A DNA stretch of 62,759 nt, filler included, from Basidiobolus ranarum (lineage: Eukaryota), in the NCBI GenBank assembly GCA_040143965.1. It is 44 parts of 44 records of this genome, joined end to end, with 100 filler letters (N's around TTAATTAATTAA, not from the genome) between each part and the next. Parts side by side here need not be neighbours in the genome. Positions count along the whole stretch, not along the records: positions 14,328 to 15,658 come from JASJQH010012389.1; 43 more parts are not named here. One strand, 5' to 3'. The notes below the pieces were generated by a model. It was not told where the DNA came from. It worked only from the letters and a program-made list of their open reading frames with translations, and ran no database searches. The position numbers and the translations under genes are program-made. Positions 10,616-54,314 of this stretch are shown here, piece after piece (the stretch's first letter is position 1; each line of letters opens with the position of its first letter).

Positions 10616-11363
10616 TTGCCAGATATTGCATATTCTGTGGGAGTTAAGTGCCAGTATTTTCAAAATTATGAATCTGATCAAATCATAGCAGTTAAGTGAC
10701 TTCTCAGATAGTTGAAACATACTGTGGATCTGTGCTTAAAATACACATATTCTGGATCAAACTTTGATTTGATGGGATATTCAGATGCACATTGAAGAAG
10801 AGATATTGAAGACAGGAGATCTACAACAGGATACTTATTTCTTTGCTGTAAAGGAGCTATTTCTAGGAATTCAAAGAGGCAATCTACCATAGCACTTTCA
10901 ACAACAGAAACAGAGTATATGGCTGCCTGTGAAGCAATAAAAGAAGCAATATGGTTTAGAAAACTCTTAGCAAATTTAGGCTATTCACAAAATTCACCAA
11001 CTACAACATGTCAAGATAATCAAAGTTGTATCAAATTAGCTAAAAATCCCATGTTTTGCAGTAGAAGCAAACATATGGATATTAGACATCACTTCATTAG
11101 AGAGACCATACAGAATAAGTATATTGACTTAACTTATTGTTCTACCAAAGATATGATTGTTGATATATCAACCAGGCCATTGGCTAGACAGAAATTTGAG
11201 AAATTTAGTCCTCTCTTAGGATTAGTTTATATGGCCATTTAGTTGAGGGAGAGTGTTGAAATTAGCATTGCCTAAACACCTATATAGTCATATATAGCTT
11301 AGTACTTAGTTATCTTATATTGAACTAAGATATTATCCTTTATTCTCAATTGGAATATACTTG
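10616..11363 (+). mobile_element. Copia 3' end: RNase H remnant, PPT (11245-11253), LTR family C starting TGTTGAAATTAGC at 11254
   Basis: EYMAACEAIKEAIW, SKHMDIRHHFIRE; purine tract abutting TG. Confidence 0.92.
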
Positions 11364-14327: not shown

Positions 14328-14438
14328 ACACAGCCAGATATTGCATATTCTGTGGGAGTTATGTGCCAATATCTTCAAAATTATGGATCTGATCAAATCA
14401 TAGCAGTTAAGTGGATTTTCAGATATTTGAAAGGTACT
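14328..14438 (+). pseudogene. Copia RT C-terminal fragment abutting the viral D5 gene
   Basis: QPDIAYSVGV...AVKWIFRYLKGT; same family as 10616-10725. Confidence 0.9.
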
Positions 14439-14439
14439 C

Positions 14440-15063
14440 GTATTATTCTTACAGGAACCCAATCCAGAAGAAAAAATAAAAGGAGGTATAGTAAAAGAAT
14501 TAACAGGGAACGATAGAATTTATGTCAGGAATTTGTTTAAGAGTCCTAGATCTATACAAGTTAAGGGTAAAATTGTCCTGGTTTGTAATAATATTTTATC
14601 GATTCCGGATATGGATTCAGCACTAAGGCAAAGAACAATAGTTATCCCATTTATTAGTACATTTGTTCGAGATAAACTTTGTTTACAAGATAATGTATAT
14701 CAAATGAACTCTAATGTTGAAACTATACTTGAAGAAAGTCAAGAAGCTTTTTTATATATACTAACCCAAGAATATGCAACATTTAAACAAAAAGGACTAG
14801 AAATACCTGAATTTATGAACAAAGTAACACAAGAGTATCTAGATGCTTACAATTATCTGTTAACATTCAAGAAAAAATATGTAATATATTCTGAAGGATC
14901 TATATATAATATACATGAGGCATACAAAATGCTTAAGGATTGATTTACAACAAATAATCCCTGTAGAAAGATACCAACTATGGAAGAATTTTCCAAGGTT
15001 CTCAATACAAATTCTAATGGACAATTAGTTGAATGCAGAGTAACATACCAGTTTGGAGGATAA
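14440..15063 (+). pseudogene. D5-like SF3 primase-helicase C-terminal half (NCLDV-like), one internal TGA at 14941
   Basis: Walker B LFLQEP, KELTGNDRIYVRNLF (B'), KIVLVCN (motif C), ALRQRTIVIPF (Arg-finger region); frame reads on through the TGA to TAA at 15061-15063. Confidence 0.88.
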
Positions 15064-15066
15064 TTT

Positions 15067-15354
15067 TTAAAAATTATATGTTTTTTTACATGATATACAA
15101 TAACACATCCATGTTGATCCCTTGTTGGCTGATCAAAGTTGAAATTCTCTAATTATAATAGTTGTTTTATCACAATATTTGCATGGTGTATTACTTTTTA
15201 TTTTATTTACATCTTTATCATCTGCGTATCTACCAAAAATGCTATTTATCATTGAATCGAGATTAAATTGGTCCCCAATCAATAGCTTGTCTAGTATTTG
15301 TACATTTCTATTGGAAATTATTTTTTTTAGGTAGGCTAACATATATTCATCCAT
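15067..15354 (-). pseudogene. Short TFIIS-like zinc-ribbon transcription elongation factor (about 95 aa, virus-like)
   Basis: Read through the TGA at 15133: PCKYC...REFQL*SANKGSTWMCYCISCKK, matching CxxC...QxRSADE(G/P)xT...CxxC. Confidence 0.85.
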
Positions 15355-15542
15355 GAATTGGAAAGATGATTAGCAAGAATTTTACAATGATAATTCTGAT
15401 CTAATAAAGACAGACTCAAAATTCTTTCCTTATCTGATGATATTTTTGTCCCTAGTCCATCAAAAGTGTTTAAAATATTTTGAATGGTATCTTTAACAGA
15501 AATCCAAGTAGTTGATGTTGGTCAATCTCCATATTCATCTAG
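15353..15542 (+). pseudogene. Uracil-DNA glycosylase N-terminal part, cut by a copia LTR
   Basis: Manual translation MNWKDD*QEFY.../...FVPSPSKVFKIF*MVSLTEIQVVDVGQSPYSS resembles family-1 UDG VF..F....VKVVIxGQDPY. Confidence 0.75.
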
Positions 15543-15658
15543 TGTCAAAATTAGCATTGCCTAAACACCTATATAGTCATATATAGCTTAGTACTTAGTT
15601 ATCTTATAATTCACTAAGATATTATCAATTATTCTGAATTGGAATTTACTTAGAATAT
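15543..15658 (+). mobile_element. Copia LTR family C inserted into the UDG gene
   Basis: TGTCAAAATTAGCATTGCCTAAACACC matches the LTR starts at 11254 and 47454. Confidence 0.92.
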
Positions 15659-15758: not shown

Positions 15759-17089
15759 TAGCACCTCTTAGATCAAACTTTGTAAACACCTTGGCTGAAG
15801 CAATCTGATCCAAGAGTGAGTTGATTAATGGCAAGGGGTACCAATTTTTGACTGTAATGCTATTTAAACCTTGATAATCAACACAGAAATGGAGGGATCC
15901 ATCTTTTTTCTTAACAAATAAGATTGGAGAACCTGCTGGGGACTTTGAATGTTGGATGAATTCTTTCTCGAGAATTTCTGCAATGTACTCCTTCAGAATG
16001 TTGAGTTCTGGCTGGGTCAGCCCATATATGGGTCCAAATGGTAGTTGTTTTCCTTCCTGTAGATCTATAGGGCAATCATATGGGCAGTGAGCTGGGAGTA
16101 TATCAGATTTCTTCTTGTCAAAGACATCAGCAAAGGCTTGGTATTTGGGTGGGAGCTTGTGAACCATAGGTTTTGTTGGTTTCTGCTCATCAGCAATAAT
16201 GTCAGCAGATATTGGCTTCATAGATGTTTTTAGGAGTTGGGCTGGTGATGAGTTAGATACTTTGCAGGTTGGCAAATATGGACTAGGAGGCAGAGTTTGC
16301 TTGAATGTCATAATCTTCTTCTTCCAATTGATTACTGGATTGTGCTGCATGAGCCACAAGATACCAAGGATGACTGGGTGGTGAGGTGAAGAAATGATAT
16401 TAAAGGCTATTTCTTCTTGATGAGCAGTGGACATGAGTGTCAGAAAGGTTGTCTCATGTGTCACAGCACCTGATGATAGCAGCCTTCCATCAATTACTTC
16501 TACAAGGACTGGACTAGATTTCTTGATTGTTGGGATAGAGTGCAATTTTACAAAGGCAGAGTCAATAAAACAGGAGGAAGCACCTGAATCAAGAAGTGCA
16601 GTTGTTTTTATTGACTTGGAATTTGGAAGCAGGAGTGTAATGGGCAGCTTTAATGATTTGTATGACTGCAGAGATTGTGATGTATGGTGAAGATACATTT
16701 TTGAAGATGGTTTGCCCAACTGCATGCCCATTATTGCAGCTGGGCATTGAAGTTTTCCAAGGGTTGGGAAGAGTTCTCTGGTACTTGCATATTGTTGATC
16801 TTAAATCCATGATTCTTCTTTGGACAGGTTCTTGCTACATGTCCAGGAGCTCCACAATAGAGGCATAAATTCTCTTGTTGGCGTTGATATTTCTCCTCAG
16901 GGCTAAGCTTTCTGAAGCAAGTTCCATCAATTTGCATTGGGTCATCAGCTTGAGCTGTATTTTGTGTTTGATGGAAGGGGGGTCTGAAAGTAGATGATGA
17001 AGGAGAGAAGAAAGGAACCATATTTCTTTGTTGTTGTCTTTCAAACAACCAGTTGTCACATTTAACTGCCTGGTGGATAGCATCAGTCA
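15759..17089 (-). mobile_element. Ty3/gypsy gag end (CCHC knuckle), protease and start of RT
   Basis: CLYCGAPGHVARTC; ALLDSGAS; SPAGSPILFVKKKDGSLHFCVDY; FTKFDLRGA. Confidence 0.96.
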
Positions 17090-28084: not shown

Positions 28085-28628
28085 ACTATAATATGGTGAT
28101 GCAAGTAATTACTAATGATTAACATGGTGATTACACACAAGCCACTGCACATTACAATTACTTCAGAGAAATACAATGGCTATACTTTATGATAGCAGCT
28201 GACATGTCAACATTTACAAAGTAAACTACTGATGAAAGATGAGAGTAAAGATCATGGCTAGGTATGAGTGTTGATATGATGAAGTGTGAATCATTTCTGC
28301 CTTTGCTATATAACTATGGACATATCTTCTCAAAGATGATTTATTTAAAGGTTCAAGCAATATCATGCCACAAAAAAATCAAGATTGCTTCCCACATCTA
28401 CCTACTAGAAGAGGCAGAGGTAGTGTTCAAAGTGGGACAATAGCAAACCAACAGTCCCAAAACCCAGTGGTGCCTAATAAGAACCAAACTACCCATGCAT
28501 TGGGCACTGTAGAACAACTGGCTGCAAANNNNNNNNNNNNNNNNNNNNNNNNNNNNNNNNNNNNNNNNNNNNTTAATTAATTAANNNNNNNNNNNNNNNN
28601 NNNNNNNNNNNNNNNNNNNNNNNNNNNN

Positions 28629-29470
28629 TTTAAATCTAAATTAAAACTTAATTAAAAACCAAATTCGAATCTAAATTTAAAACTTTTAAAAATAATTTCG
28701 TAAAATATTATTTAGAACTTGATTTAAATCTAAATTAGAACTTAATTAGAAACCAAATTCGAATCTAAATTTAAAACTTTTTAAAATTATTTCGCAAAAT
28801 ATTTTTTTTAAACCCTAATTATGATCTAACTTAGAACTCTCTCACAGACTTGATTTAAAACTTTTTAAATTTATTTCGCAAAATATCTTTTTTAAACCCT
28901 AATTATAATCTAACTTAGAACTCTCTCACAAACCCAATTTAAAACTTTCTAAATTTATTTCGCAACAAGTTTATTTTAGAACCCAATTAGAATCTAACTT
29001 AGAACTTAATTTAAAACTCTCTCACAGACTAGATTTAAAACTTTTTTAAAATTATTTCGCAAAATATCTCTTTTAAACCCTAACTATGATCTAAATTAAA
29101 ACTTAATTAGAAACCAAATTCGGATCTTAATTTAAAACTTTTTTAAAACTCTCTCACAGACCAGATTTAAAACTTTTTAAAATTATTTCGCAAAATATCT
29201 CTTTTAAACCCTAACTATGATCTAAATTAAAACTTAATTAGAAACCAAATTCGGATCTTAATTTAAAACTTTTTAAAATTATTTCGCAACAAACTTTAAT
29301 TAGAACCTAATTAGGAGCTTAAATGTAAATCTAATTCGAGACCAAATTCGAATCTTAATTTAAATCTTCTTCGCAAAATATCTCCTTTAAACCCTGATTA
29401 AATTCCAACTTAAAACTTAATTTAAAACTCTCTCACAAACCCGATTTAAAACTTTCTAAATTTATTTTAT
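28629..29470. repeat. Complex AT-rich modular repeat array
   Basis: Shuffled modules TTTCGCAAAATA, AAACCCTAA, CTCTCTCACA, CCAAATTCG(A/G)ATCT, ATTTAAAACTTT. Confidence 0.9.
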
Positions 29471-33363: not shown

Positions 33364-34242
33364 CTAATTGGATTCATGTAATTCATTCTCACTTTCCACT
33401 CTTTGTTGTTTCATGAATTCAGTAACGGCACCTTGATATAATTCATCGTTTAAATTTCTAACTCTCTGGTAATGTTCATGAATACGAACAAGTTCCCCTT
33501 GTAACTGAGTGATTTGATCACGTAGATGGTCTTGAGTACCTTGACGCTAGTTTGGTTTAGTATGCTGTGAAGAGAAGGTACATGTGGATGTGGATGAGGA
33601 TGAGGATGAATTACCTGTTGATCACGTAAAGTTTCTCGGGCATGGCTCAGGTCAACCGAGTATGGGATATTCCATTCTTCATAAGTGACTTGTCTCTCAA
33701 GAAGTTCCTTATCCTAATGTAGATTCCTGATGAGTGATGAACATTCGAGTGCGTTTAAATCAATCAATCTATTACCTCCTTGGTTCCAGGTAGGTAACGG
33801 TGGATACCATCCTCTAGCTTGAATTCTTGAGAAGCTTTTTGAATTCTTTTGAATGGTTGAATTGGTGTTGGGAATACTGTAGTGTTGGTTGAACTCATGA
33901 GATCCATAGGCTTGAGGATAACCGACACGTTGGTGATGGGTCCTATGTATGGGAGGATTTGCTTAGTATCGGTGGCAAAGAGAGGAGATTGAAATTCACA
34001 AACCTTTATGCTGTGTGAAAGATCTAATCATTTGACGACTAGTAACGTCCCAAACCATGGCTGAACCATCTTCCGATCCAGAGATTAACAGAGTCCCATC
34101 AAAGGACAGTGCAAGAGATTGAGCCGGTTCACTAGAAAATCATATTTAGAGATGGGAATCGGATTTTCCATCTTTAGGGTTTCTTTACTTACGTGTGTCC
34201 TTTGAATATCAAGCTTGGCTCACCACTGATTCCGGTGCTAAC
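33364..34242 (-). CDS. 3' part of a multi-exon WD40 gene, Ipi3/WDR18-like (pre-rRNA processing)
   Basis: Exons SLALSFDGTLLISGSEDGSAMVWDVTSRQMIRSF..KG / PITNVSV..P..PFKR / C-terminal coiled coil, with GT-AG introns. Confidence 0.8.
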
Positions 34243-34342
34243 NNNNNNNNNNNNNNNNNNNNNNNNNNNNNNNNNNNNNNNNNNNNTTAATTAATTAANN
34301 NNNNNNNNNNNNNNNNNNNNNNNNNNNNNNNNNNNNNNNNNN

Positions 34343-34498
34343 GGTCTCCACACCACACTTAGTCTTAACCCAGTCGTCATTAACACAACGAACGATGGTA
34401 CGGTCATCCTCAGAGGAGCACTTGCTCTCCATATGTGTACATGCCATCACTGTCCGACTAATGAGAGCGAGAGTTATAAGAGTAGCGTAAAATTTCAT
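34343..34498 (-). CDS. Secreted Cys-rich protein, CBM19-like (chitin-binding), copy 1, truncated
   Basis: Signal-like MKFYATLITLALISRTVMA then C-x6-C-x10-C-x4-W-x4-C. Confidence 0.7.
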
Positions 34499-35498
34499 AG
34501 TTGCCAATGAATGCTAATGATATATGAGTATTACCGTTTAGATGATTGATGAGTGTATAGTTGATGAATTGAGTGTTATGTTCATTAGTAATTATCCTCT
34601 TATATATATCATCGAGATGAAGATTCCCGCATTTTGTGATTCTAACAGTCAGAGAACGATGCAATGTGGATATGTATACAGTAAGTGCATATACATTGAG
34701 GCACCAATAAATATCAGTGAAATTCATGTATGGGATACAAAATGCACGGTAAAGAATGTAGGGAGGTACAACACGACATGCTACCCTCAAAATGTTTGTC
34801 ACTCAAGAGTAAATTTGAAAGACTGAAGTCAATCGACAACATAACTTCGTAATATCGCATCAATGATACTTGTATTCAAATACACTATATTGTATTATAG
34901 TTCCTGAAGACTGGTACGATACCCGCATCAAAATTGTTAGAAGTAATGGATAGTATATTAAAGATCGCCAAGAAGGAGTTAGTAAGCATGTAAAACTGTT
35001 TACCCTTTACAAGAATATCGTACACGGATATGATTTGAGCTTATTTTTGGTACTTCAACTGGGTTATATATAATATTGCTCATCATCTTGAAGAAAATTT
35101 TATTTCAACATATGCCTATGTCTAAGTCACATGTTTAATGATGGTGACTCTCTTAATGATGTTCTTCTCAGTCTATTAAACCATACAAATGTTACTATTT
35201 GTTAATCCATCATATATTGAAGATTTTAATTGGGTCAAGCAATGGTGTAGATCCATGTCTTGACAGTTGGGTGCGGTTATCATTAATTTTGTGTTCTTTT
35301 ATGCATTGATACCCCTTGAACTTTAATTCAGGGCAATATAACGTGTTATGGCATCAGTGCAGCAAGCAAAAATAAGCAACAGACATGAACACTGTGCGTA
35401 CTCCTGTCACGTATGCCAACTTGTTCGAAAGAGAAGTAAAAAAGGTATAAATATCCTGTCAATGAGTACTAATAGATAACTATCCCAAGTCGATACAA

Positions 35499-35670
35499 AT
35501 GAAGTTCTACGCTACTCTAATTGTCCTCGCATTTTTCAGTCAGGCCGTAATGGCATGTACGCATATGGAGAGCAAGTGCTCCTCTGAGGATGACCGTACC
35601 ATTGTTCGTTGTGTCAATGACGACTGGGTTAAGACCATGTGCGGTGAAGAGACTGTTTGTCGTGAGAAGG
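35499..35670 (+). CDS. Secreted Cys-rich protein, CBM19-like, copy 2, divergently oriented; TATAAATA about 50 nt upstream
   Basis: Near-identical mature region ACTHMESKCSSEDDRTIVRCVNDDWVKT. Confidence 0.72.
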
Positions 35671-35917
35671 NNNNNNNNNNNNNNNNNNNNNNNNNNNNNN
35701 NNNNNNNNNNNNNNTTAATTAATTAANNNNNNNNNNNNNNNNNNNNNNNNNNNNNNNNNNNNNNNNNNNNCAAAATGTATAAATGCTTAATTTCTGGTCA
35801 ATAAATAATTATCTCACAAAGCTATTCACAACTCCACTTTTCTAAAGTTCCTCCAAACAGCCCATATTTTCCCAATAATTTCAGCCTGGATAGACTTCAC
35901 TACAGTTCCAACACTTA

Positions 35918-36910
35918 CTCTAACAGAAATTTGAGGATTATTGCTGTGAGGAAATCATTAAAATATAACCCTTTTGAATTTACTATTTACTGACCATCAT
36001 AAAATTGTGAAGATAGATTTGACTTTAAATAATTTTTTCAGTTTCAGGAGTGAAATTTTAAAATCTTGCAAATAGTTGCACATAATTGGCTACAATCTCA
36101 GAAAGCTATAGATCAACATGTGTGCCAAAAAGATAACTCAATTTTTACGCATTTACTACTTGAATGCTAATTTGTGACCTTTGAAATCCCTAGTTTCTTT
36201 GATATATTCCCCTAAATATTTTTATAGAATTCTTCATACCAAACATTTAGCTCACATCCAACACAAGTTTGTATCAATATCTCCATCAGAGCTCACCATA
36301 GTATTAAAGTTGTTGAATCAACATTCTTCCAGTTATCTGGTAGATACCCTGCAATATTGTGCCACTTTATATTAAGTTCTTCCCAGATATCTACATGGCC
36401 AACACCAGATTGAATGTCAAATTGAATGTTCTTCTTAAGCAACTTTCTGCATACTTGCACTGCATTTTTCCCTGCATAATTTTGAAAATACTCTTCAAAC
36501 ACTATTACCATTTTTATCAATACTTGTAGTGTGACACTACTCAGTATGCATTATTGTGTTTGGGTGGTTTTTTGCTTGACTTCATGGTTGGGGCTGATTG
36601 CAACACTTTGAAATGCATCAGTTGTGGTGGAGAGCCATGAGCTTTATTTGCTGGTGTTTTGGCATGTTGAGAGGTACCAGGTGTTGTATAAACTTCCCAA
36701 TTTAACACTCTTCCAATTGTTGTACTTGGTTGCTGATAAAAATAAAATCAATCTGTTCTAGGAGCAACAGCAGGACTGACATTCAGAGTCTTTTGGTTTA
36801 CTGGTTTTCCTATGAGATTTATACTTTCATGTGCCTAAGCAATTTTGGGTCATTGTATAGGCTTAATAGTCCAGCACATATTCTACTCTGCTAGATTGTC
36901 ATGGTGACAT
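35918..36910 (-). mobile_element. CMC terminus B and internally deleted ORF2
   Basis: FEEYFQNYAGKNAVQVCRK homologous to about 44727. Confidence 0.8.
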
Positions 36911-39920: not shown

Positions 39921-41484
39921 ATTGTTTTAAGTTATAGAGTGTTTTCTGGAGTTNNNNNNNNNNNNNNNNNNNNNNNNNNNNNNNNNNNNNNNNNNNNTTA
40001 ATTAATTAANNNNNNNNNNNNNNNNNNNNNNNNNNNNNNNNNNNNNNNNNNNNATACAAAGATATTTAGTCAGTATATGTGACTAATTGATTGAAAAGGT
40101 ACATGTAAGCACAATTACTAATATAAGTCATTGACTAGGGAAAGTGTAAGAAGCCAAGGGAAGCACCAATGCTTGAGGAACACAGATCTGACTAACAACC
40201 ACAGTGTAGGGGCTGGAGGACACCATCTTGCATAGCACATTGAACTAATACACATACAAGAACAATTTTACCTTACTATTGATAGTTCATGGAGCATATT
40301 AGGTAAATAATTTTGGAACAATAGAGAGTAAATAAAGCTATAGAAAAGAATATTGTGAGAAAAGTCAATAAAAATAACAGTTCAGCATGGTTCCAAGCTT
40401 GGGCAAGTGTTACTCGATTCAAGTGGGGTGCTTTGATAAAGTGAGAAGAAAATGGGTTTCGTTGTACAGAAAAATCGTTGTGGTACGTAACGAACATTAA
40501 CACGAGACAACAGCGAGTATACAAATCACTCCTTGATTGATCTTATTGTTAGTGTATCATGGTTGGATTCAGAATATAGGCTTTTCTCCATTCATCGAAT
40601 ACAAGGGTGCTTAGGCTAGGTAGCACCGTAAATCATAGCTTGAGAGAGCTTTCAAGAATAAAGACATGGTTTATTACACAATTGCCTTCTACACGTCAAT
40701 GCAAGGTTTGGATTGAAATTAATTTAGATTTAATGGAGCGCTTTTTGATGGACGAATAATTCACACTGAATTCATGAGCCAGAAGAAATACAACAGACAC
40801 CTTGTACATGTTCTCCAAGATGAAGCGTACTGGGTTCATGTGTTCTTCTTCAACATTTGTAGTGGTGGGTACCTTCATGATGTCAAATATTCATGTGGAG
40901 TGTTTGATGCTGACTACAATCGTGCTTTTAAATCATGAATCAAGTGATAATTGATGTTGTATTACCCATGGTTGTACCTGCAATTGTACGCTTATGGTTT
41001 ATTGTCATCAGCTTCGTTCACACCAATTCTGATCCAAGCAATCCGAAGCAATCTCATATTCTTTGATTTTCAGGAGAAATGGGACAGGCCTGGCCGGGTC
41101 TGGGATGAGATGAGATTAAACTCGGCCGCGTGCTTGGTGGTATAGGACAAGCAGCTTATGTTAGTTAAGTTAGTACAAATGACCATCTCTGGTAAAGCTC
41201 CTCTAGCTCACAAAGAAACTGAGGCTTTTAGAGATAATTTCACAACTAAAGATGTCATACATTTAGGCATCTCTTTAAATTTCTTTTCGATTGACAGAAT
41301 AGACCCGTTAAATACACGAAAATCCATAGCACCAGGGCATATGTTACATAAATAGGGTCAAGGTCAGCTGAGAGATGGAGNNNNNNNNNNNNNNNNNNNN
41401 NNNNNNNNNNNNNNNNNNNNNNNNTTAATTAATTAANNNNNNNNNNNNNNNNNNNNNNNNNNNNNNNNNNNNNNNNNNNNAACA

Positions 41485-42395
41485 GGTTATGAGCCCCAAG
41501 CTTGCACTCTCTGTAATGTCTACTTCTCAAATTTATGGAACTTTTCCCTCTTCTGAAAAATTGGATGGAACCAATTATCAAGTTTGGAAAACTAAAATGA
41601 AAATGCTGCTGCAAGAAAAAGAACTTTGGGACACTGTTGTAGGAGAAGAAAACAATGCAAAACTATCTGAAATCAAAGTTTTACTCCAGGTTAAAGAAGA
41701 ACAAAGTGCCTTTAACACAATTTGTCTTAATGTTAAAGACAAATTGCCAATTCAATGTTCAAGAGCTAAAACTGCCACAAAGGTATGGAAATCCTTCAAA
41801 GACACCTACAAAACAAGTTCTGCTGCCTACAAGATGTTTCTAACAAGACAATTCTTCAACTTAAAGAAGAAGCCAGGAGATGACATTAAATCACTAATTA
41901 ATAGAGTCACTATTTTAGTGGATGAAATGGAGTGCATCGGAGTATCTACTACTGATCAAGATATCATAGTTACAGTCCTGAATAGCCTGCCACACAAGCT
42001 TCAGAGCCTAGTAATGGCTCTAGAATTAAGAACTGAAAATTTGATCTTAAATTATGTATTTGGCAGACTTCTGGATGAAGATTTACACAAATCAGGATCC
42101 AACCACAAGAATGAAGAAAATGGTATAATAGGCTATGGGAAACCTTCCTACAAAGATCTAAAGCACTTTAAGAAGAAAATTAACGCATTCTGTGATTACT
42201 GTAAAAGAACTGGCCATTTAAGCAAAGATTGCTTTAAAGAATTGCAAAAGAAGAAAAACACACTGAATCTGGAAATGTGGTTGCAACAGAAGATCACTTG
42301 TTCATATCAGCTCTATCAATGACTACCAACAAGGATTCTCAGATGTGTTATATTAATTCTGGAGCTTCCCAAAATTTCATAAATGAAAAACATTG
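41485..42395 (+). mobile_element. Copia PBS plus gag (UBN2-like, CCHC knuckle) and decayed protease start
   Basis: AACA-GGTTATGAGCCC; CDYCKRTGHLSKDC; YINSGAS. Confidence 0.93.
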
Positions 42396-43295: not shown

Positions 43296-44234
43296 TGTTG
43301 AAATTAGGTAAATAGCAACTCATTATTTAGTAGTTAGTTCATTCATATTCTGATTATTTAGCACTCAATTCTGTCATTCAAAAATGTGTGTTTATTGCTC
43401 TAATTAATAGAAATATCAATTCAATCACTTTTACCAATTTTCACTATTTTCTCAAAACCTCTCCAAATCATCTCAAATTTGCACCCATGCTCAACAGGCA
43501 TGTTTGTTATGATCTAGCATGTCCAATAGTCCTAGTTCATAGTAAACTATAAATAGGACACATTCAATACAATAAAACTTAAGTGTCTAACTCACAAATC
43601 CAAATTGTGTCCAAAACACCTTGGAATCCTCTTAGCACAATTATCACATTATGACCCCCAAGCTAGCTGTTGAAGGAATGTCTACCAGTAGTATCACCAA
43701 TATTTTTGCATCCACAGAGAAGTTTGATGGTGAAGTCTTTCACATTTGGAAGTTCAAGATGCAAATGGTACTAGAAGACAAGGACCTGTGGGGATATGTT
43801 ACAGGAGAAAAAATAGAGCCAGAGGGACCACCAGAAGCTTTCCTTGCCTCTCACAAGAAGCAGAGGAAAGCACTCTCTACACTTTGCCTGCATCTCAGAA
43901 ATTCTCAATTGAGGCACATACAATCAGCCAAAAGCATCCAAAATGCTTGGGAAACACTTGAGGAACTATATGAGACTAAAAGTCTGGGTAATAGGCTTTA
44001 TTTTAGGCAAAAATTATCCTCAATTCAGATAAATACTGATGATTCTATGCTTAATCATATAAATTTGATAGAAACTATGGCAGATCAGCTCTCTTCCATT
44101 GGAGCACCTCTAAAAGATGATCACTTAGTCATGACACTACTTGGGAGCCTGCAAGACAATTTTTGGCACTTCAAATTTGCCCTAGAATCAAGATCAGAGC
44201 CATTAATAATGGAATATGTTGGTGCTAGGCTTTT
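43296..44234 (+). mobile_element. LTR A (43296-43646) plus gag of a second copia family, inserted into a CMC transposase fragment
   Basis: EKFDGEVFHIWKFKMQMVLEDKDLW; the flank at 42950-43295 encodes WEFPME. Confidence 0.92.
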
Positions 44235-47187: not shown

Positions 47188-47801
47188 CAAAATTCACCAA
47201 CTACAATATTTCAAGATAATCAAAGTTATATCAAATTAGCTAAAAATCCCATGTTTCATAATAGAAGCAAACACATAGATATTAAGCATCACTTCATTGG
47301 AGAGACTATAGGGATTAAGTTTATTGACTTAACTTATTATTCTACAGAAGACATGATTGCTGATATATTAACCAAACCTTTAGCTAGACAGAAATTTGAG
47401 AAACTCAGACCTTAATTAGGATTAGTTTATATGACTATTTAGTCAAGGGAGAGTATTGAAATTAGCATTGCCTAAACACCTATATAGTCATATATAACTT
47501 AGTACTTAGTTATCTTATAACTCACCAAGATATTATCAATTATTCTCAATTGGAATTTACTTGGAATATTTTTACCAACTTTAGAAGTTCTCAGATATAT
47601 GGATTTTTCAAACTTGTGCTAGAAGCCCCAAACTTTGCACACATGTTTGTGGGACCTTCCTTAACATATTCTACATGCTAGTTTGTTTGCATCTTGACAA
47701 AATTATAAATGTCAACTTTCTACTCAATGAATCAATAAGTAAAACTACCAATTCCTCTAATTCTCCAAACCACTTCCAACAGGCTCCCAAATACTTTAAC
47801 A
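47188..47801 (+). mobile_element. Copia RNase H end, PPT and complete LTR C (47454-47801)
   Basis: SKHIDIKHHF, ADILTKPL; LTR ends TTTAACA. Confidence 0.92.
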
Positions 47802-48955: not shown

Positions 48956-50190
48956 GGGTTAGGTTTGGGAGCCTGTTCAAAATGGCTTCATGAATTAGAG
49001 AAACTGATGATTTTCACCAATTGATTTATTGAGCTGAAAGTTGCCATTTATAGTTTTATCAAGAGGTAACTAAAGTAATGTGCAAAATTTGTTTAGGAAG
49101 GTCTGAGACCTTCCAAGCTGGTAAACATATTCTACTTAAATTCTGATTGCAAATAACTAGTAATATCTTGGTGAAGTACATGATGTCTAAATACTAAGCT
49201 ATATATGTCTATATTGGTGTTTAGGCAATGCTAATTTCAATAATGTTTAGCTCATATTGCTAAACTCAATCTAATAGAATTATACCTAGATACAGGAGTA
49301 AAAATTTCTGTATCATCTATTTCTGGTTTTTGGGAATAACCTTAGGCTACCAGTCTAGCCTTGTACCTTTCTATATGGCCATCAAATTTGTATTTAACTT
49401 CACACATGCATTGGCAGCCAATTGATTTTGTATTATCTGGCAATGGCAAGTTATCTAAAGTACAAGCTTGATAATTAATCAAAGCCTAGAACTTGTCAGC
49501 AATTGCAAATCTTCAGATTTCTTTGTGATGCCCATTCAGGCCCTCTTTTACATTCTAGGGTTCATGTATTTGATCTGTGCAGGCATAGGCCCTGTCTTGG
49601 GAGTTATTAATTAGTAAGCTAGGCTGTTTCTGATCCAATTTGATCTCCCCTTTTAGGATAGAGATTGTACAGCTTCTGACATTGTGTTGGACACTACAGT
49701 AGGCTAAGTTCTGGTTGAAGAGTCCACAGGAATGCTACTTTCTTCATTGTTTTAGCTTGAAGCAAGTTGAATGATTGAGTGAGACAAAATTAATTTTTTT
49801 CCTATGCTGGGATCATTTTTACCCTAATAGAAATTTGAGGATTGTTATTGTAAGAAAACTGTCACAATTTTAATCCATTTGGGTTCAACCAATTACTTAC
49901 CGTCATAAAATCATCATGTTATATTTGATTTTAATCAATNNNNNNNNNNNNNNNNNNNNNNNNNNNNNNNNNNNNNNNNNNNNTTAATTAATTAANNNNN
50001 NNNNNNNNNNNNNNNNNNNNNNNNNNNNNNNNNNNNNNNACATAATTCACATATATATATAATATATGTTCCGATTTTCAGCTAAGTGATATTTGACTAA
50101 ATAATGTTGACTAACTAATATGTGATATATGAAATAGTTAGGTGTATAAAAGTAGGGATAACATATATGATAAAGACAATAAACTTCAAC

Positions 50191-50653
50191 AGCCATTACC
50201 CCCATTAGTGTAAATGCTAGCTCTCCAACTTTATCAAGAGGTATAGAAAATTCATCAATAGAAAAAATTTTGTTGTATATACAAAAATTTTCAGAAGATT
50301 CTGACAAAAGAAACCAAAAAACTTTAGAGGTTCTCAATCAGACCCTACTTGAACTCTTGAATTCTATATCTAATCAAGACAAATTGTTCACCAAGTCTAT
50401 TGATGAAATGGTTTCTGTGATGAAAGACGCCAACATTTCTGAACGTACCAAGAACCAATTGACAGAACAAATTATCAAACTTCTAGATGAAAAAATTTAC
50501 AAAAAAGGCTTAGTATTAATAATAACTCCAAAAGGAGGTAAAATGCAACCAGTAGATAATTTAGATGATTTAGAACAGTATACTAAAGATAAAAATGTGT
50601 ACGTTACTGGCAGTATTTCAGATATAACTAAGGGACTTTTCCTAGTTGACTGA
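50191..50653 (+). CDS. Orphan intronless AT-rich ORF (putatively viral), 5'-truncated by reversed LTR B (50040-50190)
   Basis: Frame open from the LTR junction (AITPISVNAS...LLYIQKF...GLFLVD*); convergent with UDG, 10 nt between the stops. Confidence 0.6.
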
Positions 50654-50663
50654 TTTTTAAAAA

Positions 50664-51140
50664 TTATTTATGCCAAGATATAGGAAGTTTGTTTATTTTA
50701 GTTAGCATCTGGTTGATTTTAACAAATATATTACTATGAGAGAATGTTTTGTTTAAAAATCTAGATACAAGATGATGAACATTTATTATATGAGTAACCG
50801 GCAATATATCTGCTAATGCCCAACTATCTCTTCCCATTAAACTGTATACAACATTAGGTTGATTACATTCTATATATTTAATTACATTTCTAGTAAACAT
50901 TTCCCAAAAAATTTTATGATTGTTAGAAAACTTGCAGTTAGATATTCCATGAGTCCATGATACATTTATCAAAAAAACTCCTTGTCTCATCCAACTATAA
51001 AAAGTGTCATATGGATTAGGAGGAGGTAAATCAAACTTGTATGCAATTTTGTCAACAATCACTTGAGCAGTTTTAGGAATAGATTGACATTTGTGTGATG
51101 GCATTATCAGAATTCCACTAGCAAAAAAATTATTTGTAAA
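50664..51140 (-). CDS. Uracil-DNA glycosylase central and C-terminal part (virus-like), 5'-fused to copia gag
   Basis: FASGI, SWMRQGVFLINVSWT, HKIFWEMFTRNVIKYI, VVYSLMG, HHLVSR, FSHSNIFVKINQML match family-1 UDG motifs. Confidence 0.85.
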   Translation of the reverse strand, partial: FTNNFFASGILIMPSHKCQSIPKTAQVIVDKIAYKFDLPPPNPYDTFYSWMRQGVFLINVSWTHGISNCKFSNNHKIFWEMFTRNVIKYIECNQPNVVYSLMGRDSWALADILPVTHIINVHHLVSRFLNKTFSHSNIFVKINQMLTKINKLPISWHK

Positions 51141-51464: not shown

Positions 51465-51988
51465 CCAGTATTGTCACAATATCTGAAAAGATTGATATCT
51501 TGATTTTCACTTTGTTTAGATTAGTATTTAAGCTAAATAAAGTCCATACCATCTGGTGCTTTTCATCCCCCCTAACCCTTTCATATTGTTGCAAAACTCT
51601 CCCCATTGAACTTATTACACCTGCCAGAATTGATGACCTCCATCATCCCGGACTTGGCCTCAAAGCTACTCAATTGATTACTCAAACATTGGTGAATAAA
51701 TACAACGCTCGTCCACATTGAGACAAGAATGGACCATATTATTTCTCACGCAAAGTTCGTTTTGCTACACATTTTGAACTTGATGAATTAGTTCACTCCT
51801 ACGATCCGCATGGTGTTTTCAGAAACGACTTGACCGATCATATTTTCAAAAACATTTCATCTAAACTGAACTCGGCTGTTGAGCACTGTACTTTAGAGGA
51901 TTTTTGTCTTTGTTCCAGTAATAACAATTGTGCTACTGGCCAAGTATACGTTAAAGAAGATAACCACAGATACTGTACTTTTTCTTAG
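51465..51988 (+). pseudogene. C-terminus of an FAD-linked aldonolactone (L-gulonolactone/arabinonolactone) oxidase-like gene
   Basis: ARPH*DKN (RPHWGK motif), YDPHGVFRN, Cys-rich tail CTLEDFCLCSSNNNCA. Confidence 0.7.
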
Positions 51989-52311: not shown

Positions 52312-52724
52312 TTAAATAAAAACACCCAATGGTACAAAGGACTCCTTGGAAAATGCGGTAGCACTCAAATTTTCATTTTGTAAAAATTTGGATGGGAAAG
52401 CAACCAAATGGCCCCGAACTTTGCTAAGAATTTCTTTGATTTCCTCATTTGATTTGGTCTTTAGAGCACTATGACCGGTCATCACTAAGTTGGAGTTGGG
52501 TACGAATCCAGTGTACTCCGTCCAATTAGTTACTGTGTCATCCGGCACACACCGGAATACAACTCTATAGATCTCAGTGTTTGTAGTAGCAGTTTTACTC
52601 CATACATCGTTGAAAAATCTGTCTGATAGTGGATCCATAACTGGGTTTTCTTGAGGTTGTGGAGGTTGTGCAGGTTGTTGGGTTTCATTGCCGCCACGAT
52701 GGAAGTGTCGATGGATTCGATCAC
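52312..52724 (-). CDS. Last exon of phospholipase D1 (Spo14-like)
   Basis: DPLSDRFF..VW...A..NTEIYR.VFRCVPDD, VRGHLV.FP..FL. Confidence 0.9.
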
Positions 52725-53019: not shown

Positions 53020-53461
53020 TGGACCTCCTGGTGGAATAGTCACTTGGTCCTAAGCTCATGGTGGCTAATCTTCCTACCATTCCTAAGATGGATATTGAGT
53101 AAAGTGATGGTTACAAGTTACTTGAGAAGAGAGACCAATCAATACAGTAGGGGCTACTAATGACGGCGGTCATTCTGATCCAAAGCCCACTTCTACATCG
53201 ATGCCTTATTCAACAACTACCGCAAAACCAACTTCAATAACCACTGACAAACCCCCTTCAACAACTGCTACTTTAACTAAACCAACTGTTACCAATCCAG
53301 GTACTGGTGCCTGTGCAGGCATTACAAATTGGGAAGCTAACAAGGCATATAATGGTTCTCAAACGGATGCTTTTGATGGACATCTCTGGCAAGCCAAGTG
53401 GTGGACACCAAATGAATCTCCTAGTAAACAAGGAGTATGGACAGATTTGAGATCTTGTTAG
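53020..53461 (+). pseudogene. Chitin-active protein 3' part: disrupted upstream domain (possibly AA11 LPMO-like), P/T linker, CBM5/12 chitin-binding module
   Basis: WEANKAYNG...FDGHLWQAKWWT...PS..GVW; upstream GPKLMVANLP with frameshift and stops. Confidence 0.7.
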
Positions 53462-53940
53462 AAACAGTCGTATGTGTCGTTTGAGCTCCTTGATACTCTA
53501 CCCTAGTGTAGTTCTCAATAAACAATCCATTTATCTCATTGATTGGCTATGAAATTCACTCTTTACCATTCTAACTCTAGGTAAGCTGATGTATTCGATA
53601 TCCATTATTTCTATAGATTTTTTCTATATTTATGTTTATACGCATTGAAGGAATTGCGTAGTTAAATATATATAGTATATATCCCATTAACAAAGTGGTT
53701 GAGTTGTACTAATATTTATTGATTAGAGAATCCGCTATACTATCACGATATTTGAAATACTGTTGTAACTTTTATAGATACATACCGCTTCAATAACTAA
53801 TATCTTATGGATTATTATAATCTGAAGCTGCTCAAGAAACACACATTAAATACGCTTGTATATTTATTGAACTTATTCATCTAAATCTCACAGTATACAT
53901 ATATTGGCCATAAATATAATTATTAACATTTACTACTTTT

Positions 53941-54213
53941 CTATTTATCACAGTCCTGATCTCCACTACTTTTACCCCCTTTTCCAGCATCATAAGGACC
54001 AGCTCCATTATCACCATTACTATTACCGTTATCACCGCCATTTCCATTTCCGTTGCCGTTTCCACCCTTTCCAGCATCATAAGCACCAGCTCCATTACCG
54101 CCATTACCATTTCCACCCTTTCCAGCATCATAAGCACCAGCTCCATTACCACCGTTACCGTTGTCATTATCACCACCGTTTCCAGCACCGCCATTACCAT
54201 CTCCGTTACCATT
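53941..54213 (-). CDS. C-terminus of a Gly/Asn-rich repetitive protein with GAG(A/P)YDAGKGG x3
   Basis: Frame absent from the ORF track: NGNGDGNGGAGNGG...GAGAYDAGKGG...SSGDQDCDK*. Confidence 0.75.
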   Translation of the reverse strand, partial: NGNGDGNGGAGNGGDNDNGNGGNGAGAYDAGKGGNGNGGNGAGAYDAGKGGNGNGNGNGGDNGNSNGDNGAGPYDAGKGGKSSGDQDCDK

Positions 54214-54314
54214 TNNNNNNNNNNNNNNNNNNNNNNNNNNNNNNNNNNNNNNNNNNNNTTAATTAATTAANNNNNNNNNNNNNNNNNNNNNNNNNNNNNN
54301 NNNNNNNNNNNNNN

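Follow-up and report, generated by a model that had tools for sequence, protein, structure and literature searches.

The question raised by this locus is whether a piece of giant-virus DNA in an assembly of the fungus Basidiobolus ranarum was inserted into a chromosome and decayed there like a transposon, or whether it comes from a live virus that contaminated the assembly. The window analyzed here is the whole stretch of 62,759 nucleotides, taken from assembly GCA_040143965.1. A preliminary description noticed a TFIIS catalytic motif in it that seemed to have been destroyed by three CpG transitions. The evidence given below suggests that a giant-virus TFIIS gene was integrated in a Basidiobolus-type chromosome and probably decayed by methyl-CpG deamination, like the transposons that surround it.

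A giant-virus relic among retrotransposons

The window consists mostly of LTR retrotransposons, and 20 of its 116 ORFs of at least 75 amino acids carry retrotransposon (copia or gypsy) domains. Masks of 44 N occur in pairs across it, at a spacing of about 1.43 kb. A giant-virus relic of 1.1 kb (14439-15547) lies in this DNA and contains the last third of a D5 gene, a TFIIS-like gene, and the initial part of a UDG-like gene (Table 1). The hallmark genes of an endogenous Nucleocytoviricota element are thus found within 1.1 kb, and the relic is of giant-virus (Nucleocytoviricota) origin. The D5 fragment aligns with residues 496-703 of P0007, an intact D5 protein of 703 residues encoded on a 5.4-kb contig, at 82.2% identity over 208 amino acids (tblastn, E 1.5e-110). 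Since this intact D5 is 82% identical to the relic, a much less decayed relative of the relic's virus, endogenous or free, is already on record. Identity of the fragment is 51% with a B. ranarum protein, 41-49% with 30 further D5 sequences of metagenomic origin, and 44% with the D5 of L001, a viral contig from IMG/VR on which polB, D5, a TFIIS-like gene of 95 amino acids, and a UDG-like gene are found close together. No other pieces of D5 were found in the window. The UDG label is approximate, as the L001 protein scores 20.9 bits against Pfam UDG, below the cut-off of 24.3.

All three viral genes are cut short or have in-frame stops. There are three in-frame TGAs in the relic, and two of the genes are truncated: D5 starts only at residue 496 of its 703, and the UDG-like gene breaks off near residue 101. 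The D5 TGA (14941-14943) is found where every aligned homolog has W, while a CAA codon (Q) at 14629-14631 occupies a position where R is invariant in every aligned homolog. The TGA of the UDG-like gene (15481-15483, plus strand) aligns with R in the sole available homolog, that of L001. The preliminary description had proposed that this stop and the Q in the D5 sequence ALRQR both arose from CGA, and the alignments agree with it at both places, by way of a single homolog in the case of the UDG-like stop.

The relic is joined to transposon repeats at both ends. On the left, 14333-14438 is 90.6% identical to 10618-10723, with weaker matches to other copies bearing RVT_2, and its translation resembles copia reverse transcriptase. 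The right flank is 95.5% identical to 47459-47569, 93.6% to 10591-10483, and 91.9% to 11252-11362. Comparison of the window with itself places the transposon/virus junctions at 14438/14439 and 15547/15548, both in continuous unmasked sequence. The physical junctions that distinguish an endogenous giant-virus element are therefore present on both sides, and inactivating lesions are present as well. The relic is integrated in a chromosome and has become a pseudogene remnant. Chromosomal integration, as first supposed, is thus borne out by the flanking repeats, truncations, and in-frame stops, while the idea of a contaminating live virus is contradicted by these junctions, truncations, and stops. 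A host-type marker is also found in the window: an exon that is 81.7% identical to residues 627-735 of the phospholipase D (PLD) of Basidiobolus ranarum (E 1e-54) and 63% identical to that of B. meristosporus.

Table 1. Positions of the viral, transposon, and host-type features in the window.
Feature	Position	Strand	Basis or remark
Left flank, copia-type reverse transcriptase fragment and transposon repeat	14328-14438	+	Ends where viral homology starts
D5-type primase-helicase, C-terminal third (NCLDV)	14437-15060	+	tblastn to P0007
TFIIS-like small zinc-ribbon pseudogene	15070-15354	-	95 codons, one TGA
Broken acidic hairpin	15118-15135	-	*SANKG; homologs have RSADEG
Hairpin codon TGA	15135-15133	-
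Hairpin codon TCA	15132-15130	-
Hairpin codon GCC	15129-15127	-
Hairpin codon AAC	15126-15124	-
Hairpin codon AAG	15123-15121	-
Hairpin codon GGA	15120-15118	-
UDG-like N-terminal fragment	15448-15546	+	L001 UDG-like residues 69-101, 42% identity, pairwise E 1e-6
Right flank, transposon repeat	15548-15658		Starts where UDG-like homology stops
Open frame of 156 codons	50183-50653	+	34% over 56 amino acids to the C-terminus of the L001 431-residue protein, BLASTP E 0.002
UDG-like C-terminal part	50673-51125	-	L001 residues 108-259, tblastn E 7e-13
Phospholipase D (PLD), last 109 residues, host-type marker	52315-52641	-	B. ranarum PLD match

The TFIIS-like ORF has kept its zinc ribbon and lost its acidic hairpin. 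It begins with ATG, and its sole stop is the TGA of the hairpin. The minus strand from 15135 to 15118 reads TGA TCA GCC AAC AAG GGA, or *SANKG with the stop as the asterisk, exactly as first described, and this motif is located between an upstream CKYC and a downstream CISC. A HMMER scan with the ORF against 1.84 billion representative proteins gave four matches. Two of these are repeat proteins that cover only part of the query, and the other two (P0005 and P0006) match residues 2-93 with E values of 2.5e-5 and 6.3e-5. They are named at NCBI as Basidiobolus ranarum and B. meristosporus proteins, and they align to 15351-15076 of the window DNA with E values of 2e-10 and 7e-9. The three full-length homologs that were found, namely these two and the 95-residue TFIIS-like protein of L001, all have RSADEG at the aligned place, within QLRSADEGS in P0005 and P0006 and QNRSADEGS in L001. 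Their two cysteine pairs align with CKYC and CISC, so both CxxC pairs are present in the window copy, while the intact D and E of the hairpin RSADE are replaced in its *SANK. Each altered codon is one transition away from a codon for the homologs' residue, and the changed base is at a would-be CpG. The proposal that RSADEG was the ancestral motif and that three CpG transitions destroyed it is therefore upheld, as none of the three intact homologs natively carries ANK; the motif itself provides a sample of three changes.

Profile searches place the homologs in the TFIIS family. The window ORF scores 19.0 bits against Pfam Zn_ribbon_TFIIS (PF01096; E 1.2e-3, profile positions 2-38 of 39), which is below the gathering cut-off of 21 bits, compared with 43.1-44.9 bits for the intact copies in P0005, P0006, and L001. 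A PDB search with a profile of the three homologs found RPA12 of S. pombe Pol I (7aoc, E 1.6e-7), the archaeal RNA polymerase ribbon 1qyp, and TFIIS 1tfi; with the broken ORF it gave only two matches at chance level (E 0.49 and 0.83). A word-indexed protein search with the ORF found no match. In IMG/VR, an alignment led by the window copy gave 76 pattern matches, none of which was confirmed, and an alignment led by the L001 copy recovered only the contig of L001 itself. In the TFIIS family, transcript cleavage in the active site of the polymerase depends on a metal ion coordinated by the D and E of the hairpin. The window copy, in which R has become a stop, D an N, and E a K, is, to judge from its codons, a dead member of this family by descent.

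A second piece of viral DNA is found at 50183-51125. Its UDG-like part is open for 164 codons, with a copia gag fragment directly upstream. The 156-codon frame beside it matches a 431-residue protein that is the neighbor of the UDG-like gene in L001; this likeness is weak and the assignment tentative, and no Pfam family matched the frame. The two UDG-like fragments are about 35 kb apart in the window, on opposite strands, and their breaks are complementary, one extending up to residue 101 and the other starting from residue 108. They may be halves of one gene split by transposon nesting and inversion, or they may be two copies cut by chance near the same place.

Several other features follow this second piece in the window. 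The plus strand at 51467-51988 has a sub-threshold match to the C-terminal domain of an L-gulonolactone oxidase 2-like protein (19.4 bits, cut-off 27). An in-frame TGA at 51719-51721 breaks this frame, which may be what is left of a decayed host gene. Upstream exons of the PLD gene are missing from the window, where it gives way to transposon and low-complexity DNA; this gene may be truncated or interrupted. An open frame at 53126-53461 (plus strand) combines a region rich in Thr, Ser, and Pro with a chitin-binding module, CBM_5_12 (27.4 bits). It is followed at 53870-54270 by a block of low-complexity repeats with spurious matches to a repeat region of L001.

CpG loss in the relic and its surroundings

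Replacements in the viral genes are biased toward CpG. Ten of the 19 single-step GC-to-AT replacements are at CpG and nine are not. In the orthologous genes of L001, a free relative, 64 of the 470 possible non-synonymous GC-to-AT sites are at CpG (13.6%), and the excess over this baseline is significant (binomial P = 6e-5). The polarized changes show the same bias, with five of ten at CpG (P = 0.0065), or six of 11 when the UDG-like stop is included (P = 0.0016). When the same procedure was applied to the D5 of L001 and homologs at a similar distance, four of 26 and three of 24 changes were at CpG; Fisher's test of the pooled counts against the first of these controls gives p = 0.0096. Changes of R to stop, Q, or C are assigned to CpG by parsimony by construction, a property that the baseline and the controls share. 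Measured against both, the spectrum is enriched at CpG, as the preliminary description led one to expect.

The counts are drawn from all three genes. D5 differs from P0007 at 37 residues. Taking the window as the derived side, 12 of these are single-step GC-to-AT changes, and four or five go from AT to GC. Six of the 12 are in a CpG context. Outgroups polarized four of these 12 changes, two of them at CpG, and the other eight are unpolarized. In the TFIIS-like gene there are 13 positions where the three homologs agree and the window differs; six of these are single-step GC-to-AT changes, and the three at CpG are those of the hairpin motif. The UDG-like stop, added to the changes in D5 and the TFIIS-like gene, brings the total to ten of 19. 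The ratio of GC-to-AT to AT-to-GC changes is 12:4 in D5 and 26:24 in the control, an excess that is not significant (p = 0.09). Of the nine changes outside CpG, three (at 14530, 14943, and 15170), too few for a statistical test, replace the second G of a GG pair with A. The change at 14943 is the W-to-stop change of D5.

The relic is also depleted in CpG. It has 7 CpGs compared with 22.6 expected (O/E 0.30), and the second piece (50183-51125) has 4 compared with 21.0 expected (O/E 0.18); none of 5000 shuffles was as low in either case. The ratio is 1.03 in L001, the only relative with DNA that was compared, which is 44% identical in protein, and the composition is thus compatible with CpG poverty native to the ancestor. 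Six transposon segments have ratios of 0.00-0.12 and two host-like exons 0.71 (PLD) and 0.64, and the relic falls between the flanking transposons and these exons. Across the whole window the values are 0.22 for CpG, 1.28 for TpG, and 1.30 for CpA. TpG and CpA in the relic (1.10 and 1.22) are no higher than in L001 (1.24 and 1.20), and the gain to be expected from about 16 lost CpGs is small. Arginine is encoded by CGN in two of the 18 Arg codons in the viral frames of the window, compared with 12 of 25 in the L001 orthologues. Depletion reaches a similar degree in each of the four NCG contexts (0.19-0.33), and TCG is not favored.

CpG sites are unstable in the transposons. Alignment of 35 pairs of transposon copies gave 15,604 columns; of the 2257 with a conserved C, a single one is a conserved CpG, and 75 CpG sites differ between the copies. 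CpG-type changes make up only 75 of the 1204 transitions in these pairs because CpGs are almost gone. The spectrum of the transposon pairs therefore shows that CpG is unstable, with no dominant share of CpG-type changes.

Long open retrotransposon frames are found at 15760-16800 (minus strand, 347 residues), 41483-42319 (plus strand, 279), and 43636-44232 (plus strand, 199). CpG O/E is only 0.00-0.05 in the transposon segments to which they belong, and these families seem to have become nearly free of CpG while still coding. Near-normal values occur amid the depleted DNA at 28600-29430 (O/E 0.77), which is AT-rich (GC 0.27) and has internal repeats, and at 34001-36000 (O/E 0.71), so the loss of CpG is patchy rather than uniform.

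Alternative explanations and proposed history

One alternative is that the relic is integrated and decaying, yet low CpG is native to the virus lineage and the genes changed by ordinary neutral mutation with a transition bias, in which host methylation played no part. The distant relationship to L001 leaves room for this explanation, and the nine changes outside CpG and the TpG and CpA values that do not exceed those of L001 are also in its favor. Against it, the CpG-type changes fall on conserved residues (R replaced by Q, C, or a stop and, behind codons ending in C, D by N and E by K), which indicates that existing CpGs were lost and not that they were avoided by choice of codons. In addition, the CpG share is about four times that of the baseline and control, and the flanking transposons are depleted likewise but more strongly, while the host-like exons are not. 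Overall this alternative appears unlikely. Another explanation is that the cytosines were hit by a RIP-like hypermutation, triggered by repeats and preferring CpG, and not by slow spontaneous deamination of maintained 5-methylcytosine (5mC); a process of this type has been proposed for certain fungi other than ascomycetes. The host is a fungus, all of the DNA around the relic is repeated, and according to a preprint on Entomophthora, domains of RID-like methyltransferases and possibly RIP itself occur outside Dikarya. Its effect on dinucleotides would be identical to that of methyl-CpG deamination, and sequence alone cannot separate the two. RIP of the Neurospora type is expected to give high TpA/ApT, low (CpA+TpG)/(ApC+GpT), and a composite index above 0. 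This signature is absent, as CpA and TpG are in excess and not depleted, and the composite index is negative in the window (-0.67), the relic (-0.47), and the transposons (-0.84 to -1.32). The dinucleotide and trinucleotide counts rule out both Neurospora-type RIP and a process specific to TCG, since the NCG contexts are depleted without a preference for TCG. There is also no second copy of the relic within the window that could trigger recognition as a repeat, and a RIP-like origin of the changes is improbable.

It is far less credible that there is no pseudogene at all, with TGA read as sense or with the piece being contamination from a live virus or a chimera of the assembly. The TGA in D5 does align with W, as it would under a code in which TGA is W, but the other two TGAs align with R, and since TGA corresponds to W once and R twice, a single reassignment is impossible. 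Reassignment of TGA to a sense codon was rejected on these grounds. Moreover, the catalytic D and E are replaced too, D5 and the UDG-like gene are truncated, and transposon repeats are joined to the viral DNA in continuous unmasked sequence.

Decay by deamination of methylated CpG, the preferred explanation, suggests the following history. A giant virus (Nucleocytoviricota) with a gene for a TFIIS-type transcript-cleavage factor integrated into a chromosome of a Basidiobolus-like fungus. LTR-retrotransposon insertions and rearrangements cut the viral DNA on both sides, leaving the relic of 1.1 kb. The integrated DNA would have been handled like the neighboring transposons, with methylation of its CpG cytosines, and deamination of 5-methylcytosine to thymine would have been quicker than changes at other bases. 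In the TFIIS-like gene the R codon of QxRSADEG would have become TGA, and the two metal-binding acidic residues would have become N and K. Because of this stop and these two residues, the gene cannot give a working factor. It is observed directly that the DNA is viral and integrated, that its genes are truncated and interrupted by stops, that CpG is depleted, and that the replacements favor CpG; 5mC is the presumed cause of the decay, and the region would be transcriptionally silent. The proposal that the viral DNA was methylated and deaminated like host transposons is accordingly supported as far as CpG depletion and CpG-biased changes go, while the methylation itself is deduced from them.

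A wider interpretation can be offered more tentatively, at somewhat less than even confidence. Intense CpG-specific methylation in the Basidiobolus lineage, present or past, may capture giant-virus DNA together with transposons, which would extend to fungi the model from Amoebidium that 5mC enables endogenization. Deamination might then act as an irreversible second lock, hitting first the CpG-rich catalytic motifs of viral transcription and replication genes. The Basidiobolus lineage belongs to the early-diverging fungi, a group better known for 6mA than for 5mC. Plausible machinery for CpG methylation may be found in a congener. The text of a preprint on CDCA7-HELLS states that B. meristosporus has CDCA7F and that nearly all species with CDCA7 have DNMT1, and B. 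meristosporus is not among the DNMT1 exceptions listed there; this text implies that B. meristosporus has DNMT1.

Comparison with known systems

The TFIIS-like gene resembles the C-terminal ribbon of TFIIS, RPA12, RPC10(11), and archaeal TFS (PF01096). The window copy shares the four-cysteine ribbon with the hairpin between the cysteine pairs, and it keeps the Q and the SA-G of QxRSADEG found in this family, which includes small TFIIS-like genes of giant viruses. It differs from the family in the stop at R, N at D, K at E, and a Pfam score below the cut-off. In addition, at 95 residues it is without the N-terminal ribbon of RPA12 and without domains I and II of TFIIS.

The decay of the relic can be compared with RIP in ascomycetes. 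In both, repeated or foreign DNA of a fungus undergoes C-to-T mutation, and stops are created. They differ in that the product, substrate, and composite indices are all outside the range of RIP, and in that the depletion affects CpG and not CpA.

Giant-virus fossils are already known from Basidiobolus. Gong et al. 2020 (PMC7017919) list endogenous NCLDV elements in Basidiobolus meristosporus and B. heterosporus. They name D5 as one of the shared genes and report premature stops, frameshifts, and nearby retrotransposons. The relic in the window likewise has a D5 gene, stops, and nearby retrotransposons, while the screen in that study used DNA polymerase. Neither that paper nor the Rhizophagus study of Zhao et al. 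2023 (PMC10640383) mentions methylation or CpG in its main text.

Silencing of giant-virus insertions by 5mC has been described in other eukaryotes. It is reported in Amoebidium by Sarre et al. 2024 (PMC11244446) and in Acanthamoeba and several other eukaryotes (PMC12344493), and CpG methylation has been found on parts of an integrated virus in Allomyces (PMC13533422). The word deamination is absent from the main text of PMC11244446 and occurs once in that of PMC12344493, in the title of a reference. Basidiobolus giant-virus fossils and the 5mC silencing of such insertions are thus both already known. What the relic adds is incremental, as methylation and decay of endogenous viral DNA are well known from other eukaryotes; it illustrates a known process cleanly and on a small scale, in a lineage for which this had not yet been described explicitly. 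The relic also offers a way to tell, by sequence only, a chromosomal and long-silenced giant-virus fossil from contamination by a live virus. As in Amoebidium and Acanthamoeba, the viral DNA lies in a host whose transposons and foreign DNA presumably carry cytosine methylation; those studies measured the methylation directly, whereas here it has left a probable mutational footprint. The relic is also an indication that in Basidiobolus-type fungi viral insertions receive the same marking as transposons.
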